DNA of 64,000 bases from Escherichia coli (GCF_003790525.1 NZ_CP033635.1), one strand, 5' to 3'; shown: positions 24,720 to 40,039, counted from the stretch's first letter. The notes: generated by a model from the sequence alone, not told the origin. A program made the numbers and translations.

Positions 24720-25808
24720 ATGGAGAGGATTGTCGTTACTCTCGGGGAACGTAGTTACCCAATTACCATCGCATCTGGTTTGTTTAATGAACCAGCTTCA
24801 TTCTTACCGCTGAAATCGGGCGAGCAGGTCATGTTGGTTACCAACGAAACCCTGGCTCCTCTGTATCTCGATAAGGTCCGCGGCGTACTTGAACAGGCGG
24901 GTGTTAACGTCGATAGCGTTATCCTCCCTGACGGCGAGCAGTATAAAAGCCTGGCTGTACTCGATACCGTCTTTACGGCGTTGTTACAAAAGCCGCATGG
25001 TCGCGATACTACGCTGGTGGCGCTTGGCGGCGGCGTAGTGGGCGATCTGACCGGCTTTGCGGCGGCGAGTTATCAGCGCGGTGTACGTTTCATTCAAGTC
25101 CCGACGACGTTACTGTCGCAGGTCGATTCCTCCGTTGGCGGCAAAACTGCGGTCAACCATCCCCTCGGTAAAAACATGATTGGCGCGTTCTACCAGCCTG
25201 CTTCAGTGGTGGTGGATCTCGACTGTCTGAAAACGCTTCCCCCGCGTGAGTTAGCGTCGGGGCTGGCAGAAGTCATCAAATACGGCATTATTCTTGACGG
25301 TGCGTTTTTTAACTGGCTGGAAGAGAATCTGGATGCGTTGTTGCGTCTGGACGGTCCGGCAATGGCGTACTGTATTCGCCGTTGTTGTGAACTGAAGGCA
25401 GAAGTTGTCGCCGCCGACGAGCGCGAAACCGGGTTACGTGCTTTACTGAATCTGGGACACACCTTTGGTCATGCCATTGAAGCTGAAATGGGGTATGGCA
25501 ATTGGTTACACGGTGAAGCGGTTGCTGCGGGTATGGTGATGGCGGCGCGGACGTCGGAACGTCTCGGGCAGTTTAGTTCTGCCGAAACGCAGCGTATTAT
25601 AACCCTGCTCACGCGGGCTGGGTTACCGGTCAATGGGCCGCGCGAAATGTCTGCGCAGGCGTATTTACCGCATATGCTGCGTGACAAGAAAGTCCTTGCG
25701 GGAGAGATGCGCTTAATTCTTCCGTTGGCAATTGGTAAGAGTGAAGTTCGCAGCGGCGTTTCGCACGAGCTTGTTCTTAACGCCATTGCCGATTGTCAAT
25801 CAGCGTAA
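24720..25808 (+). CDS. aroB: 3-dehydroquinate synthase
   Basis: 362 aa; translation recognised. Confidence 0.96.
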
Positions 25809-25899
25809 CAACAAGAAAGGTCAGGCCGCTTATCAAGCGGTCTATTAGCTTCAGGTTAATTGCAACGTGGTAAGCATTAACCTTTTAGTGGGGTGTTAA

Positions 25900-27186
25900 A
25901 TGGATGAATTCAAACCAGAAGACGAGCTGAAACCCGATCCCAGCGATCGTCGTACTGGTCGTTCTCGTCAATCTTCTGAACGTTCTGAGCGTACTGAACG
26001 TGGCGAACCGCAGATCAATTTTGATGATATTGAACTTGATGACACTGACGATCGCCGTCCGACTCGTGCGCAAAAAGAGCGCAATGATGAGCCGGAAATC
26101 GAAGAAGAAATTGACGAATCCGAAGATGAAATCGTGGATGAAGAGCGCGTAGAGCGTCGTCCGCGTAAGCGCAAAAAAGCAGCCAGTAAACCCGCTTCTC
26201 GTCAGTATATGATGATGGGGGTCGGCATTCTGGTTCTCCTACTGTTGATCATCGGTATCGGTTCTGCGCTAAAAGCCCCCTCGACCTCTTCCAGCGATCA
26301 AACCGCGTCTGGCGAGAAGAGTATTGATCTTGCAGGCAATGCGACCGATCAGGCGAATGGTGTGCAGCCAGCGCCGGGAACCACGTCTGCGGAAAATACT
26401 CAGCAGGATGTTTCTCTGCCGCCGATCTCTTCTACGCCGACTCAAGGGCAAACCCCGGCGGCAACGGATGGTCAACAACGTGTTGAAGTGCAGGGTGACC
26501 TGAACAATGCGCTGACCCAGCCACAAAATCAGCAACAGTTGAATAATGTGGCGGTCAATTCCACGTTGCCGACTGAACCCGCGACGGTCGCGCCTGTTCG
26601 CAATGGCAATGCATCGCGTGACACGGCGAAAACGCAAACCGCTGAACGTCCGGCCACTACGCGTCCAGCTCGCCAGCAGGCGGTGATTGAACCGAAAAAA
26701 CCGCAAGCAACCGTGAAAACGGAGCCGAAGCCGGTAGCACAGACGCCGAAGCGTACTGAACCAGCTGCTCCTGTGGCAAGCACGAAGGCACCGGCTGCGA
26801 CCTCTACGCCAGCACCAAAAGAGACCGCAACTACGGCTCCAGTACAGACGGCATCCCCGGCGCAAACCACGGCAACACCAGCCGCTGGAGGGAAGACCGC
26901 AGGTAATGTGGGTTCGTTGAAATCGGCACCGTCCAGCCATTACACTCTGCAGCTGAGCAGTTCCTCTAACTACGACAACCTGAACGGTTGGGCGAAGAAA
27001 GAGAATCTGAAAAACTACGTTGTCTATGAAACGACGCGTAATGGTCAGCCGTGGTATGTCCTGGTTTCTGGCGTGTACGCTTCGAAAGAAGAGGCGAAAA
27101 AAGCGGTATCTACATTGCCAGCCGATGTCCAGGCCAAAAACCCGTGGGCGAAACCGCTGCGTCAGGTACAGGCCGATCTGAAGTAA
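25900..27186 (+). CDS. damX: Cell division protein DamX (SPOR domain, low-complexity linker)
   Basis: 428 aa; acidic N-terminus, Pro/Thr/Ala/Gln-rich linker, C-terminal SPOR domain. Confidence 0.94.
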
Positions 27187-27292
27187 TCAAGGTTATCTCC
27201 CGCAATGGTTTATCATCGCGGGAGTTGCCTGAAGCGCTGGATGCTGTCGGAGCTTTCTCCACAGCCGGAGAAGGTGTAATTAGTTAGTCAGC

Positions 27293-28129
27293 ATGAAGAA
27301 AAATCGCGCTTTTTTGAAGTGGGCAGGGGGCAAGTATCCCCTGCTTGATGATATTAAACGGCATTTGCCCAAGGGCGAATGTCTGGTTGAGCCTTTTGTA
27401 GGTGCCGGGTCGGTGTTTCTCAACACCGACTTTTCTCGTTATATCCTTGCCGATATCAATAGCGACCTGATCAGTCTCTATAACATTGTGAAAATGCGTA
27501 CTGATGAGTACGTACAGGCCGCACGCGAGCTGTTTGTTCCCGAAACAAATTGCGCCGAGGTTTACTATCAGTTCCGCGAAGAGTTCAACAAAAGCCAGGA
27601 TCCGTTCCGTCGGGCGGTACTGTTTTTATATTTGAACCGCTACGGTTACAACGGCCTGTGTCGTTACAATCTGCGCGGTGAGTTTAACGTGCCGTTTGGC
27701 CGCTACAAAAAACCCTATTTCCCGGAAGCAGAGTTGTATCACTTCGCTGAAAAAGCGCAGAATGCCTTTTTCTATTGTGAGTCTTACGCCGATAGCATGG
27801 CACGCGCAGATGATGCATCCGTCGTCTATTGCGATCCGCCTTATGCACCGCTGTCTGCGACCGCCAACTTTACGGCGTATCACACAAACAGTTTTACGCT
27901 TGAACAACAAGCGCATCTGGCGGAGATCGCCGAAGGTCTGGTTGATCGCCATATTCCTGTGCTGATCTCCAATCACGATACGATGTTAACGCGTGAGTGG
28001 TATCAGCGCGCAAAATTGCATGTCGTCAAAGTTCGACGCAGTATAAGCAGCAACGGCGGCACACGTAAAAAGGTGGACGAACTGCTGGCTTTGTACAAAC
28101 CAGGAGTCGTTTCACCCGCGAAAAAATAA
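27293..28129 (+). CDS. dam: DNA adenine methyltransferase (GATC)
   Basis: 278 aa; DPPY catalytic motif ([11 protein letters not shown]) present. Confidence 0.97.
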
Positions 28130-28146
28130 TTCTCAAGGAGAAGCGG

Positions 28147-28824
28147 ATGAAACAGTATTTGATTGCCCCCTCAATTCTGTCGGCTGATTTTGCCCGCCTG
28201 GGTGAAGATACCGCAAAAGCCCTAGCAGCTGGCGCTGATGTCGTGCATTTTGACGTCATGGATAACCACTATGTTCCCAATCTGACGATTGGGCCAATGG
28301 TGCTGAAATCCTTGCGTAACTACGGCATTACCGCCCCTATCGACGTACATCTGATGGTGAAACCCGTCGATCGCATTGTGCCTGATTTCGCTGCCGCTGG
28401 TGCCAGCATCATTACCTTTCATCCAGAAGCCTCCGAGCATGTTGACCGCACGCTGCAACTGATTAAAGAAAATGGCTGTAAAGCGGGGCTGGTATTTAAC
28501 CCGGCGACACCGCTGAGCTATCTGGATTACGTGATGGATAAGCTGGATGTGATCCTGCTGATGTCCGTTAATCCTGGTTTCGGCGGTCAGTCTTTCATTC
28601 CTCAAACACTGGATAAACTGCGCGAAGTACGTCGTCGTATCGACGAGTCTGGCTTTGACATTCGACTGGAAGTGGACGGTGGCGTGAAGGTGAACAACAT
28701 TGGCGAAATCGCTGCGGCGGGCGCGGATATGTTTGTTGCTGGTTCGGCAATCTTCGACCAGCCAGACTACAAAAAAGTCATTGATGAAATGCGCAGTGAA
28801 CTGGCAAAGGTAAGTCATGAATAA
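28147..28824 (+). CDS. rpe: Ribulose-phosphate 3-epimerase
   Basis: 225 aa; translation recognised. Confidence 0.96.
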
Positions 28825-37055: not shown

Positions 37056-38141
37056 ATGAAGACGTTTCCTCTGCAAAGCCTGACGCTTATTGAGGCGCAG
37101 CAAAAGCAGTTTGCGCTGGTGGATAGCATTTGTCGCCATTTTCCCGGCAGCGAGTTTCTTGCTGGCGGTGATTTAGGCTTAACGCCGGGGCTGAATCAAC
37201 CGCGCATTACCCAGCGAGTGGAACAGGTGCTGGCTGATGCATTTCACGCACAGGCTGCAGCGCTGGTACAGGGCGCGGGTACTGGCGCGATCCGTGCGGC
37301 GTTGGCGGCTTTGCTCAAACCGGGGCAGCGTCTTCTGGTGCATGACGCGCCTGTTTACCCGACGACTCAGGTCATTATTGAGCAGATGGGGCTGACGCTT
37401 ATTACTGCTAATTTCAATGACCTGTCGGCACTTAAGCAGGTCGTCGACGAGCAACAACCGGATGCGGCGCTGGTGCAGCATACGCGCCAGCAGCCGCAGG
37501 ACGGCTACATTCTGGCAGATGTGCTGGCAACGTTGCGCTCGGCAGGTGTTCCAGCCTTAACCGATGATAACTATGCGGTGATGAAGGTGGCGCGCATTGG
37601 CTGTGAATGCGGGGCGAATGTCTCGACATTTTCCTGCTTCAAGCTATTTGGGCCAGAGGGTGTTGGCGCGGTGGTAGGCGATGCCGATGTTATTAGCCGG
37701 ATTCGCGCCACGCTCTATTCCGGCGGCAGCCAGGTTCAGGGCGCGCAGGCGCTGGAAGTCTTGCGTGGTCTGGTGCTCGCGCCAGTGATGCACGCGGTGC
37801 AGGCGGGGGTATCTGAACGGTTGCTGGCTTTGCTTAACGGCGGCGCGGTGGCGGAAGTGAAAAGCGCCGTCATTGCCAATGCACAGTCGAAGGTATTGAT
37901 TGTGGAGTTTCATCAGCCGATTGCCGCCAGAGTGCTGGAAGAGGCGCAGAAACTCGGTGCCTTGCCTTACCCGGTTGGTGCAGAGTCGAAATATGAAATC
38001 CCGCCGCTCTTTTATCGACTTTCCGGAACGTTTCGCCAGGCGAATCCGCAGTTAGAACATTGCGCGATTCGCATTAACCCAAATCGCAGCGGTGAAGAGA
38101 CGGTATTGCGGATTTTGCGCGAGAGTATTGCCGACGTTTAA
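37056..38141 (+). CDS. yhfS: Putative PLP-dependent enzyme YhfS
   Basis: 361 aa; translation recognised. Confidence 0.88.
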   Translation: MKTFPLQSLTLIEAQQKQFALVDSICRHFPGSEFLAGGDLGLTPGLNQPRITQRVEQVLADAFHAQAAALVQGAGTGAIRAALAALLKPGQRLLVHDAPVYPTTQVIIEQMGLTLITANFNDLSALKQVVDEQQPDAALVQHTRQQPQDGYILADVLATLRSAGVPALTDDNYAVMKVARIGCECGANVSTFSCFKLFGPEGVGAVVGDADVISRIRATLYSGGSQVQGAQALEVLRGLVLAPVMHAVQAGVSERLLALLNGGAVAEVKSAVIANAQSKVLIVEFHQPIAARVLEEAQKLGALPYPVGAESKYEIPPLFYRLSGTFRQANPQLEHCAIRINPNRSGEETVLRILRESIADV

Positions 38142-38171
38142 TTCTGGGAACGATGTTTTTCGAAGAGTATG

Positions 38172-38207
38172 GAGAAAAAATACGCCCTCGGAAAATCTCG
38201 AGGGCGT
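38172..38207 (-). terminator. Intrinsic terminator downstream of yhfL (stem CGCCCTCG / CGAGGGCG, T-run on minus strand)
   Basis: 8 bp GC stem 38183..38206 with A-run 38172..38181 on plus strand (T-run on minus). Confidence 0.55.
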
Positions 38208-38247
38208 CAGGCAATTAAATCAGCATCTGCCAATTTCTGTCAGAGAC

Positions 38248-38415
38248 TTACTGTGCAGTAGGACCGCAACCGCCAATGATTTTAGAAATAGAAATAGCTG
38301 GGTGCAGCAGGTAGTCGTAAGAGCAGTTCTTATCACGGTTTTCAATATGACCAGTACATGCAGTTAACGTAGCCAGTACCGCACCTACCAGTGCAACTTT
38401 AATAAATTTGTTCAT
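38248..38415 (-). CDS. yhfL: Small lipoprotein YhfL (55 aa)
   Basis: Hand-translated minus-strand ORF: MNKFIKVALVGAVLATLTACTGHIENRDKNCSYDYLLHPAISISKIIGGCGPTAQ (lipobox LTAC). Below ORF-track size cutoff. Confidence 0.88.
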   Translation of the reverse strand: MNKFIKVALVGAVLATLTACTGHIENRDKNCSYDYLLHPAISISKIIGGCGPTAQ

Positions 38416-38629
38416 TTACATTCCCTATGTATTATATATTGATTAATATTCATTGATTATATGAATATAAGCAGACTGCTCATTAAGAATGATACAGGAA
38501 TATTTAATTGGCGTCAGTGAACGAATGACTTAATTTTGTAAGTCGCTGTAACGGTGAATATAACCCATTAGCAGATAATATTTATTAAGGGGGGTATTTT
38601 TATCTGCTGAATATATAAAGAGAGTTGTA

Positions 38630-38656
38630 AACGAAAAAGGCCAGAATTCTCTGGCC
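38630..38656 (-). terminator. Intrinsic terminator of nirBDC-cysG operon (stem GGCCAGA / TCTGGCC, T-run on minus strand)
   Basis: 7 bp stem 38639..38656, AAAAA on plus strand at 38634..38638, 10 nt downstream of cysG stop. Confidence 0.6.
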
Positions 38657-38665
38657 CTGGTTAAA

Positions 38666-40039
38666 TTAATGGTTAGAGAACCAGTTCAATTTATCGCGCA
38701 GGCCAACAACCCGACCAATAATAATTAGCGATGGACTGTTCATTTGCTGCGCCAGTTCGCCCAGCTGCGTGAGCGTACCGTCAATCACGCGCTGCGTGAC
38801 TGCCGTTCCGTTTTCGACAATTGCCACCGGCATTTCGCCAGGCATACCGTGTTCAATCAGCTTTTGCTGAATAGTCGCGGCCTGATTCAACCCCATATAG
38901 AACACCAGCGTCTGTTTTTCTGCCGCCAGGTTTTCCCAGTCCAGTTCGCCACCGGTTTTTAAGTGTCCGGTAATTAAGCGTACGCTCTGGGCATAATCGC
39001 GATGCGTGAGCGGAATACCCGAATAGGCAGAGCAACCAGAAGCTGCGGTAATACCCGGAACCACCGAGAACGGAATGCCTGCATTGCACAGTGTTTCCAG
39101 CTCTTCGCCACCACGGCCAAAAATAAACGGATCGCCGCCTTTCAGTCGCACCACGCGTTTGCCTTTTTGCGCTTCCCGCAGCAGGATCTGGTTAATCTCT
39201 TCCTGCGGTACGCAGTGGTATCCCGCGCGTTTGCCGACGAAAACGCGATCAGCATCGCGGCGTACCAGATTCATAATATCGTCAGAAACCAGACGGTCGT
39301 AGACCACCACATCTGCCTGCTGAATTTGTTGCAGTCCTTTCAGTGTCAGCAGCCCGGCATCGCCCGGACCTGCGCCAACCAGCACCACTTCACCGCGATG
39401 GTCGAGCGGTTCGTTGATTAATTGTTCGGTCGTTTCAGTAATGGCTTTCTGATCGTTGTTTGCCAGCGACTGCGCCAGACGGTCATTAACGAACAGTTTT
39501 TCCCAGAAACGGCGACGTTCACCCATTGTGGCGAACTGTTGTTTCACTCGACCGCGTAATTGCCCGGCGTATTTCGCTACCTGGCCCAGATGCAACGGCA
39601 GCAGTGATTCAAGTTTTTCACGCAACAGGCGTGCCAGAACCGGAGAGGTGCCGCCAGAGGAGACCGCGACCATGAGCGGTGAGCGGTCAATAATTGACGG
39701 CATAATAAAGCTGGCGGCTTTCGGCGCATCGACCACGTTACAGAAGATGCGACGAGCTTCAGCGGCTTCACTGACGCGCTGGTTAAGCGCGTCATCATCT
39801 GTCGCTGCAATCGCCAGCCAGCAGGTGTCGAGAAGGCTTTCATCAAATGGCCCTTCGACGAGGGTTAACATGCCTGCATCTGCCCATGCGGTGAACTGTG
39901 GAATAAACGCTAATGCATTCACCGTTAAGCGAGCGCCTGCGTCTAACAGCAACCTTGCTTTGCGTTCCGCGACATCACCACCGCCGACAATCAGACAGTC
40001 GCGATCGCGTAATTGGCAAAATATAGGCAAATGATCCAC
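38666..40039 (-). CDS. cysG: Siroheme synthase (uroporphyrinogen-III methyltransferase / precorrin-2 dehydrogenase / ferrochelatase)
   Basis: 457 aa; translation recognised. Confidence 0.96.

Follow-up and report, generated by a model that had tools for sequence, protein, structure and literature searches.

DamX of Escherichia coli K-12 belongs, together with FtsN, DedD, and RlpA, to the family of proteins that carry a SPOR domain. It localizes to the septal ring and has a role in division, and it is described as having the longest periplasmic linker among the inner membrane SPOR proteins (PMC7642682). FtsN and DedD resemble DamX in their layout, in that a membrane helix is followed by a low-complexity segment, which in these two proteins is rich in Pro, Gln, Ala, and Thr and predicted to be disordered, and then by a C-terminal SPOR domain. 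For DedD, an NMR analysis of the periplasmic part has been reported to show a disordered region followed by the SPOR domain (PMC7642682). Compared with the linkers of FtsN and DedD, that of DamX is the longest and contains two blocks that are nearly invariant across Enterobacteriaceae.

E. coli also possesses nested and antisense genes that have experimental support, the ShET1 genes antisense to pic being an example, and in these cases the open reading frame (ORF) lies wholly within a larger annotated gene. Antisense and nested genes known from E. coli are reviewed in the introduction of PMC12350097, which also presents a PIRT-Seq translation screen of strain K-12 that yielded a nested candidate in damX, designated in-damX.

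Here, we analyzed a stretch of 64,000 nucleotides of an E. coli chromosome (NZ_CP033635.1), referred to below as the window, in which an initial annotation had pointed out a low-complexity segment of DamX overlapped by two minus-strand ORFs. We conclude with high confidence that this region is the periplasmic linker of DamX and that both minus-strand ORFs are noncoding shadows of the composition of the linker.

Results

Identity of the gene and layout of its product

The coding sequence that contains the region (Table 1) encodes the cell division protein DamX. Residues 1 to 428 matched positions 1 to 424 of the 424 in the NCBIfam DamX equivalog profile NF008153, with a score of 849.8 bits against a cutoff of 256. 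In the operon aroK-aroB-damX-dam-rpe-gph-trpS, the gene is preceded by aroB and followed by dam, and the order aroK-aroB-damX-dam-rpe was evident both from the ORFs of the window and from the RefSeq annotation of an identical locus and of K-12. In the reference genomes compared, the RefSeq annotation of the damX locus contained no antisense gene. Among complete E. coli genomes, damX is annotated in 5425 of 5426, in one copy each. The copy in the window is 100% identical to those of E. coli FDAARGOS_497 and MSB1_8B and shares 97.7% DNA identity with that of K-12 W3110; it differs from K-12 by 30 single nucleotide polymorphisms, 23 of which fall inside the linker, and by 6 amino acid changes in all. 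It is the same gene as in K-12, coding for 428 residues in the same context and with the same SPOR domain, and the differences are allelic only. damX and its linker represent biology that is already known.

Table 1. Features of the damX region in window coordinates
Feature	Position	Strand	Details
damX coding sequence	25900..27186	+	428 aa plus stop; encodes cell division protein DamX (six-frame ORF list)
Cytoplasmic N-terminal domain (predicted), acidic and basic	25900..26199	+	aa 1-100; E 20%, R 16%, D 14%
Single transmembrane helix (predicted)	26200..26259	+	aa 101-120; AlphaFold2 helix, pLDDT 69-77; hydrophobic sequence
Periplasmic low-complexity linker (predicted)	26260..26898	+	aa 121-333; composition, entropy, low pLDDT
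Antisense ORF of 223 aa (ATG start)	26269..26940	-	codon-aligned with damX; judged a noncoding shadow ORF
Conserved linker block 1	26470..26514	+	aa 191-205; at least 85% identity at every position, 81 orthologues
Antisense ORF of 113 aa (GTG start)	26529..26870	-	offset 2 relative to damX codons; judged noncoding
Conserved linker block 2	26560..26595	+	aa 221-232; at least 85% identity at every position, 81 orthologues
12-bp unit ACGCCAGCACCA, single copy	26806..26817	+	second copy in a minority E. coli allele
C-terminal SPOR domain (binds septal peptidoglycan)	26899..27183	+	PDB 2LFV, Pfam, AlphaFold2

The domain layout was derived from profile and structure matches, from an AlphaFold2 model built with a 72-sequence orthologue alignment, and from damX sequences sampled from 80 species representatives plus eight further E. 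coli strains. DamX is predicted to be bitopic, with one transmembrane helix between a predicted cytoplasmic N terminus and a predicted periplasmic part. The N-terminal domain is 86 to 100 residues long among 81 orthologues, and Tandem Repeats Finder reported a 9-bp tandem repeat at 25974-26001, within the part of damX that codes for it. The transmembrane block (aa 101 to 125) counted 25 residues in all 81 orthologues, with a mean identity to the window of 0.88. At the other end of the protein, the solved SPOR structure PDB 2LFV, entitled "Protein damX," matched residues 334 to 428 (E = 1.3e-55), Pfam PF05036 (SPOR) matched residues 345 to 418 (E = 1.9e-14), and AlphaFold2 placed the strand and helix fold of the SPOR domain at residues 333 to 427. 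Across the 81 Enterobacteriaceae sequences, the SPOR segment is 84 or 85 residues long, with a mean identity to the window of 0.89.

Composition and predicted disorder of the linker

The region singled out by the initial annotation (26260 to 26940) corresponds to DamX residues 121 to 347, the part of the protein that separates the membrane helix from the SPOR domain. Its assignment to the DamX linker is supported by the NF008153 and SPOR matches, by the RefSeq annotation of damX, and by the low pLDDT values over residues 121 to 330, which range from 31 to 56 and leave this stretch without confident tertiary structure in the AlphaFold2 model. Weak helices are predicted within it at residues 201 to 204 and 208 to 219.

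Ala (17%), Thr (15%), Pro (12%), Gln (10%), and Ser (9%) together make up 63% of residues 121 to 347, a biased composition in which residues that promote disorder are overrepresented and hydrophobic and aromatic ones are scarce. Shannon entropy over 40 residues drops to 2.8 to 3.1 bits at residues 260 to 340, versus 3.4 to 3.7 bits in the membrane helix and SPOR parts; the acidic N-terminal domain is also low in entropy, with 3.06 to 3.16 bits at residues 41 to 100. At the DNA level, 26700-26899 is skewed, with a GC fraction of up to 0.63 and an AT skew of up to +0.57. Composition, entropy, and DNA skew therefore all agree with the earlier description of the linker as compositionally biased and of low complexity, and the linker is predicted to be intrinsically disordered. 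A sentence in PMC6677119 on inner membrane proteins with regions of enhanced disorder names DamX as a ZipA disordered-region docking partner, which lends weak support to disorder of the DamX linker itself. With a mean identity to the window of 0.66 among the 81 sequences, the linker evolves faster than the flanking folded domains, in sequence as well as in length.

Conserved blocks in the N-terminal half

Conservation is unevenly distributed along the linker, its mean being 0.70 to 0.82 over residues 121 to 240 versus 0.46 to 0.56 for most of residues 241 to 340. Two blocks stand out (Table 1). In the first, Q192, R194, E196, V197, G199, L201, N202, and L205 are invariant in 72 sequences, and the block adjoins the weak helices predicted at residues 201 to 204 and 208 to 219. 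In the second, S221 to T225 and P227 to A231 are invariant in the same number of sequences. Because the N-terminal half contains nearly invariant blocks, the linker is no featureless spacer and a simple tether model is incomplete.

Length variation of the linker

The initial annotation had described the linker as the kind of region that varies in length between strains and had proposed an alignment of damX alleles to look for insertions and deletions. This expectation holds between genera, where 28 distinct lengths between 219 and 253 residues occurred among the 81 Enterobacteriaceae sequences and both halves of the linker vary, but only weakly within E. coli. Rank-spread samples of E. coli genomes, which could miss rarer indels, gave a damX length of 1287 bp for 39 of 40 genomes and a linker length of 657 nt for 58 of 60. 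The two exceptions in linker span are strain GF4-3 and a draft-type chromosome that is 1 nt shorter, maybe as the result of an assembly error.

The sole in-frame length variant that we found in E. coli is a 12-bp insertion, ACGCCAGCCGCA, after position 26805, adjoining the unit ACGCCAGCACCA and adding the residues TPAA. The gap was placed by aligning the window with GF4-3 and K-12, and the protein alignment agrees. Carriers include E. coli HS, GF4-3, and at least 28 other genomes; a 92-nt probe across the insertion was matched at full length in at least 30 genomes, and when the 4966 matches were sampled in 60 steps, full-length matching had ended by the second. This places the frequency of the insertion allele at about 30 to 85 of 5426 genomes, or 0.6 to 1.5%. 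The two-copy state is also found in E. albertii, E. whittamii, and Escherichia sp. E1V33. Since the insertion allele matches the state of E. albertii and E. whittamii, the 12-bp difference looks like one old event, and the distribution suggests that most E. coli lost the second copy through a single deletion long ago; nothing points to slippage that is still going on. The linker contains no repeat array according to Tandem Repeats Finder run down to a score of 30. Within E. coli, linker length is thus near-fixed despite the biased composition of the segment.

Synonymous diversity of the linker

Among nine strains, diversity at 4-fold sites was 0.10 in the linker, compared to 0.016 to 0.035 in the flanking segments, a difference that is affected by ascertainment bias, as the strains had been chosen along the damX identity ranking. 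In an unbiased comparison of the window with K-12 over 50 kb, the 4-fold divergence of the linker was 0.117 against a background of 0.076, and yhfZ, php, and yhfW exceeded the linker, with values of 0.137 to 0.157. The unusual values are rather the low ones, 0.00 to 0.024, of aroK, aroB, the damX N terminus, the SPOR domain, and dam. Divergence from E. albertii and E. whittamii was similar in linker and flanks. We therefore rejected the idea that the linker is a hot spot of synonymous diversity, given the biased choice of strains and the ordinary value in the unbiased 50-kb comparison.

Why the antisense frames are open

Both minus-strand ORFs are present in the ORF list exactly as had been described, encoding 223 and 113 aa. 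Their characterization as Arg, Cys, and Gly rich applies roughly to the 223-aa ORF (R 26%, L 13%, G 9%, C 6%) and not to the 113-aa ORF (A 19%, V 19%, G 15%).

In the codon-aligned antisense frame, stops arise solely from sense TTA, CTA, or TCA codons. In damX there are just two of these, both CTA, and they belong to the transmembrane helix or its immediate vicinity (26239 and 26269); TTA and TCA are used not once among 23 Leu and 35 Ser codons. The frame is open from 26272 past the end of damX because the Leu and Ser codons of the linker (7 and 17, respectively) avoid TTA, CTA, and TCA altogether. A start codon in this frame must lie opposite a His codon or CAA (Gln). Following the upstream stop, the first such codon is that of His347 (CAT), whose reverse complement provides the ATG at 26940. 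In the offset-2 frame, a stop requires a Tyr codon or a His or Gln codon preceded by a codon ending in T, and none occurs in 26532-26939. The same cause underlies shadow antisense ORFs of real genes, namely, the rarity of TTA, CTA, and TCA as sense codons (20.9 per 1000 in the window), and compared with other shadow ORFs, those of damX have nothing distinctive.

Length of the antisense ORFs relative to chance

Three null models with 5000 replicates each were used, i.e., synonymous resampling by window codon usage, a synonymous shuffle within damX, and a shuffle of codon order. In this sequence of models, the probability of an ORF of at least 223 aa was 0.077, 0.455, and 0.335, and that of an ORF of at least 113 aa was 0.370, 0.099, and 0.179. 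Neither ORF is longer than chance, given the amino acids and codon usage of damX. The sole nominal signal came from the stop-free run of 305 codons compared to window-wide codon usage (P = 0.03, uncorrected); the run is somewhat long by this standard because damX uses no TTA or TCA. Likewise, it is only the scarcity of Leu and the lack of TCA codons in the linker that make the 223-aa ORF rather long. Six further genes in the window, which according to the K-12 annotation are yhgF, envZ, mrcA, rpe, trpS, and yhfW, carry codon-aligned antisense ORFs of 198 to 296 aa.

Conservation of and selection on the antisense frames

Over residues 125 to 347, amino acid identity in the sense and codon-aligned antisense frames was 0.98 and 0.91, respectively, for K-12, 0.91 and 0.72 for E. 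albertii, 0.76 and 0.46 for Salmonella, and 0.72 and 0.37 for Enterobacter. The nucleotide differences from K-12 in this segment fall 3, 2, and 18 times at sense codon positions 1, 2, and 3 (18 of 23 at the third). Synonymous changes prevail over nonsynonymous ones in the sense codons, by 19 to 4 in the comparison with K-12 and by 54 to 21 in that with E. albertii. In the antisense codons, it is the nonsynonymous changes that prevail, by 21 to 2 (K-12), 62 to 13 (E. albertii), and 115 to 23 (Salmonella). Judging from these substitutions, the sense frame of the linker is under purifying selection; in the codon-aligned antisense frame, none was detected in the comparisons with K-12, E. albertii, and Salmonella.

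Within residues 124 to 347, the antisense frame is interrupted by stops in 77 of the 81 orthologues and stop-free in 4, and the positions of the stops vary (e.g., aa 173, 178, 221, 223, 276, 303, and 325). The longest codon-aligned antisense ORF in these sequences has a median length of 148 aa (range, 0 to 305), and the CAT codon that corresponds to the antisense ATG start is present in just 33 of 81. The 223-aa ORF is intact in all nine E. coli strains and in E. coli-like Escherichia, and its integrity in the nine strains is expected by descent at a divergence of at most 4%. The 113-aa ORF is intact in two of the nine strains and broken in the other seven, including K-12, EDL933, and HS.

Coding and expression signals of the antisense ORFs

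The codon usage of both antisense ORFs is noncoding-like. Log-likelihood scores per codon were -0.24 for the 223-aa ORF and -0.09 for the 113-aa ORF, as against +0.39 ± 0.08 for real genes, +0.32 for damX, and a mean of -0.09 for the codon-aligned antisense strands of real genes. Duplex energies for Shine-Dalgarno pairing (-3.3 and -4.8 kcal/mol) were unremarkable, at about the mean of crude gene starts. No minus-strand sigma-70-like promoter site was found upstream of either ORF, and the two terminator-like sites detected do not exceed the number expected from shuffled sequence. An Rfam search of 25000-28200 at E ≤ 1 gave 0 matches, and the idea of a structured RNA on either strand was rejected on this basis.

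The antisense products matched nothing above noise in Pfam and NCBIfam (best E = 0.78). The exact 223-aa sequence was not found among about 15 billion predicted proteins, and the 113-aa sequence occurred there just as unnamed gene calls on Logan contigs of at most 2 kb, where damX would be truncated. A full-text literature search for damX together with antisense returned no reports of antisense expression. The PIRT-Seq candidate in-damX occupies window positions 26000..26152, outside the linker region, and is read in the +1 frame of the sense strand; as it concerns the sense strand and a different part of damX, we did not accept it as evidence for the antisense ORFs.

Discussion

The identity of the gene, the domain layout of its product, the predicted disorder of the linker, the chance expectation for the antisense ORFs, and the lack of antisense selection are all documented here for this locus. 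In our reading, the linker would be a disordered tether of about 210 to 220 residues, rich in Ala, Thr, Pro, Gln, and Ser, that connects the transmembrane helix to the SPOR domain. Such a tether would let membrane-anchored DamX reach the cell wall, with its SPOR domain placed on denuded septal peptidoglycan. This flexible-tether role is the most likely one in view of the literature on DamX and the composition of the segment, and we regard both antisense ORFs, with high confidence, as noncoding shadows of that same composition.

A different view of the minus strand would be that one or both ORFs are real, young overlapping genes restricted to Escherichia and translated from an antisense transcript inside damX. 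Certain features might be taken in this sense: the 223-aa ORF begins with ATG and is unbroken in each of the nine E. coli strains as well as in closely related Escherichia, its stop-free run ranks near the top of the resampled lengths (P = 0.03), antisense and nested genes are reported in E. coli (PMC12350097), and a gene finder called the 113-aa ORF on a few short Logan contigs. However, both lengths fall within chance, antisense substitutions are overwhelmingly nonsynonymous in the comparisons with K-12 and Salmonella, neither the boundaries nor the start codon is conserved, and the 113-aa ORF is disrupted in seven strains, K-12 and EDL933 among them. Codon usage is of the noncoding type, Shine-Dalgarno pairing is weak, and no promoter-like site is located upstream; no protein family is matched, and the 223-aa product is absent from the predicted proteins searched. 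The published nested candidate in damX, moreover, is located on the sense strand and elsewhere in the gene. The damX ORFs share with supported nested or antisense genes (ShET1/pic, the PIRT-Seq candidates) the location wholly within a larger annotated gene, but unlike these, they have no support from selection, conservation, or expression signals. We consider the existence of such overlapping genes extremely improbable. Equally remote, in our estimate, is the narrower scenario in which a cryptic antisense transcript supports weak translation of the Arg-rich 223-aa ORF, which would be so young and Escherichia restricted that it precedes any signal of selection. The suspicion in the initial annotation that the ORFs are artefacts is therefore in line with their chance length, unconserved frame and boundaries, and noncoding codon usage, and with the lack of family, Rfam, and promoter signals.

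For the linker itself, two departures from a plain tether deserve attention. It might be a repeat-driven, contingency-like region that is hypervariable in length and often differs in size between strains. E. coli does have a 12-bp indel that keeps the frame and is bordered by the direct repeat ACGCCAGC, and 28 linker lengths between 219 and 253 residues occur across genera. Against this, the linker has no tandem repeat array, its length and that of damX are almost constant in the sampled E. coli genomes (657 nt in 58 of 60 and 1287 bp in 39 of 40), the insertion allele is rare (30 to about 85 of 5426 genomes) and coincides with the state of E. albertii and E. whittamii, and the 4-fold-site divergence of 0.117 is within the range of other genes. 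With no repeat array and one 12-bp indel allele in E. coli, we rejected this reading as very unlikely. More credible, although still tentative, is the possibility that the N-terminal half of the linker (approximately aa 139 to 233) carries short linear motifs or a conditionally folded element that binds a peptidoglycan synthase or a divisome partner. This idea extends the tether explanation and does not replace it. It would fit the high conservation of residues 191 to 205 and 221 to 232, with their many invariant positions, the higher conservation of residues 121 to 240 than of most of residues 241 to 340, and the weak helices in the AlphaFold2 model. Reports that DamX interacts with PBP1B and stimulates it (PMC7642682) and that DamX cross-links to gp27 of phage T4 (PMC11054660) may point in the same direction. 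On the other hand, pLDDT values in this part reach just 51 to 56, no Pfam domain covers it, and all species sampled are Enterobacteriaceae, so that limited divergence may explain part of the conservation. The two blocks may thus be interaction motifs, and conserved blocks in a linker that is usually treated as a spacer could guide the mapping of DamX interactions.

With respect to the gene as such, the outcome matters little, in that a textbook gene is confirmed and a quantitative account is obtained of why its linker yields long antisense frames. Where a coding region is low in complexity and poor in Leu, the codon-aligned antisense frame stays open, which calls for caution in ORF-based scans. 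On short contigs, gene finders do call such shadow ORFs, as exemplified by the 113-aa ORF in the Logan assemblies.

Conserved and variable segments of damX

The periplasmic linker of DamX, supposedly featureless, holds two blocks that are nearly invariant across the Enterobacteriaceae compared. AlphaFold2 predicts weak helices at aa 201 to 204 and 208 to 219 in this part of the protein. We propose that the two blocks may represent putative, so far unmapped interaction motifs. The coordinates of these blocks and of the other features discussed here are collected in the table.

Features in and around damX
Feature	Position	Strand	Description
Low-divergence segment	24142-26199		aroK, aroB, damX N-terminus
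Low-divergence segment	26932-28129		SPOR domain, dam
9-bp tandem repeat	25974-26001		TTCTGAACG x 3.1; encodes SERSERTER, DamX cytoplasmic domain
Nested out-of-frame ORF	26000..26152	+	50 aa, GTG start; +1 frame inside damX N-terminal domain
Conserved linker block 1	26470-26514		DamX aa 191-205; nearly invariant across 72-81 Enterobacteriaceae species
Conserved linker block 2	26560-26595		DamX aa 221-232; nearly invariant across 72-81 Enterobacteriaceae species
Sigma-70-like site	26917-26946	+	TTGAAA + 18-nt spacer + TACACT; 9/12 matches

Orthologues from Salmonella, Citrobacter, and Enterobacter lack 5 to 6 residues exactly at the SERSERTER repeat. Hence, it is this 9-bp repeat that is the clearest slippage-type indel site of damX, and not the linker, which the initial annotation had described as the kind of region that varies in length between strains.

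At four-fold sites, divergence from K-12 is 0.00 to 0.024 in aroK, aroB, the damX N-terminus, the SPOR domain, and dam, compared with 0.076 for the 50-kb background and 0.117 for the damX linker. These segments form a local trough of synonymous divergence that is broken by the linker. Both recombination history and stronger constraint are possible sources of this trough.

Nested reading frame and promoter-like site

The 50-aa ORF nested in the N-terminal domain corresponds to the "in-damX" candidate of the PIRT-Seq study (PMC12350097), since its stop codon, TAG at 26150-26152, directly follows the 3' end of the SPA-tagging primer IN-damX_DW.F used there. In that study, the candidate was detected in one kanamycin replicate only (PMC12350097). 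The +1 frame of damX is free of stops over 63 to 73 codons in most of the 81 orthologues, likely because the acidic and basic sense sequence is devoid of NTN codons.

The sigma-70-like site lies where the linker meets the SPOR domain, approximately 350 bp upstream of dam, and is read in the sense direction. Such sites were no more numerous than in shuffled sequence.

Neighboring region and irregular damX records

In K-12 (locus record L090, 38423-43758), yhfS and cysG are separated by the frlABCDR operon and yhfL, which together take up about 5.3 kb. The window has about 0.5 kb (~38141-38666) between yhfS and a 457-aa minus-strand ORF of the length of cysG, and the strain therefore appears to be without the fructoselysine operon.

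Two damX records were irregular: in Citrobacter amalonaticus AUH_CA_2023_1 (L051) a frameshift cuts damX to 89 aa, and in E. coli UID2309220036 (H167) the linker spans 656 instead of 657 nt. While either could be read as a real pseudogene, assembly errors in long-read drafts are the probable explanation. In the ecoli_genomes collection (5426 complete E. coli genomes), all genomes but one had a damX match, and one match came from a sequence record that carries a plasmid label.
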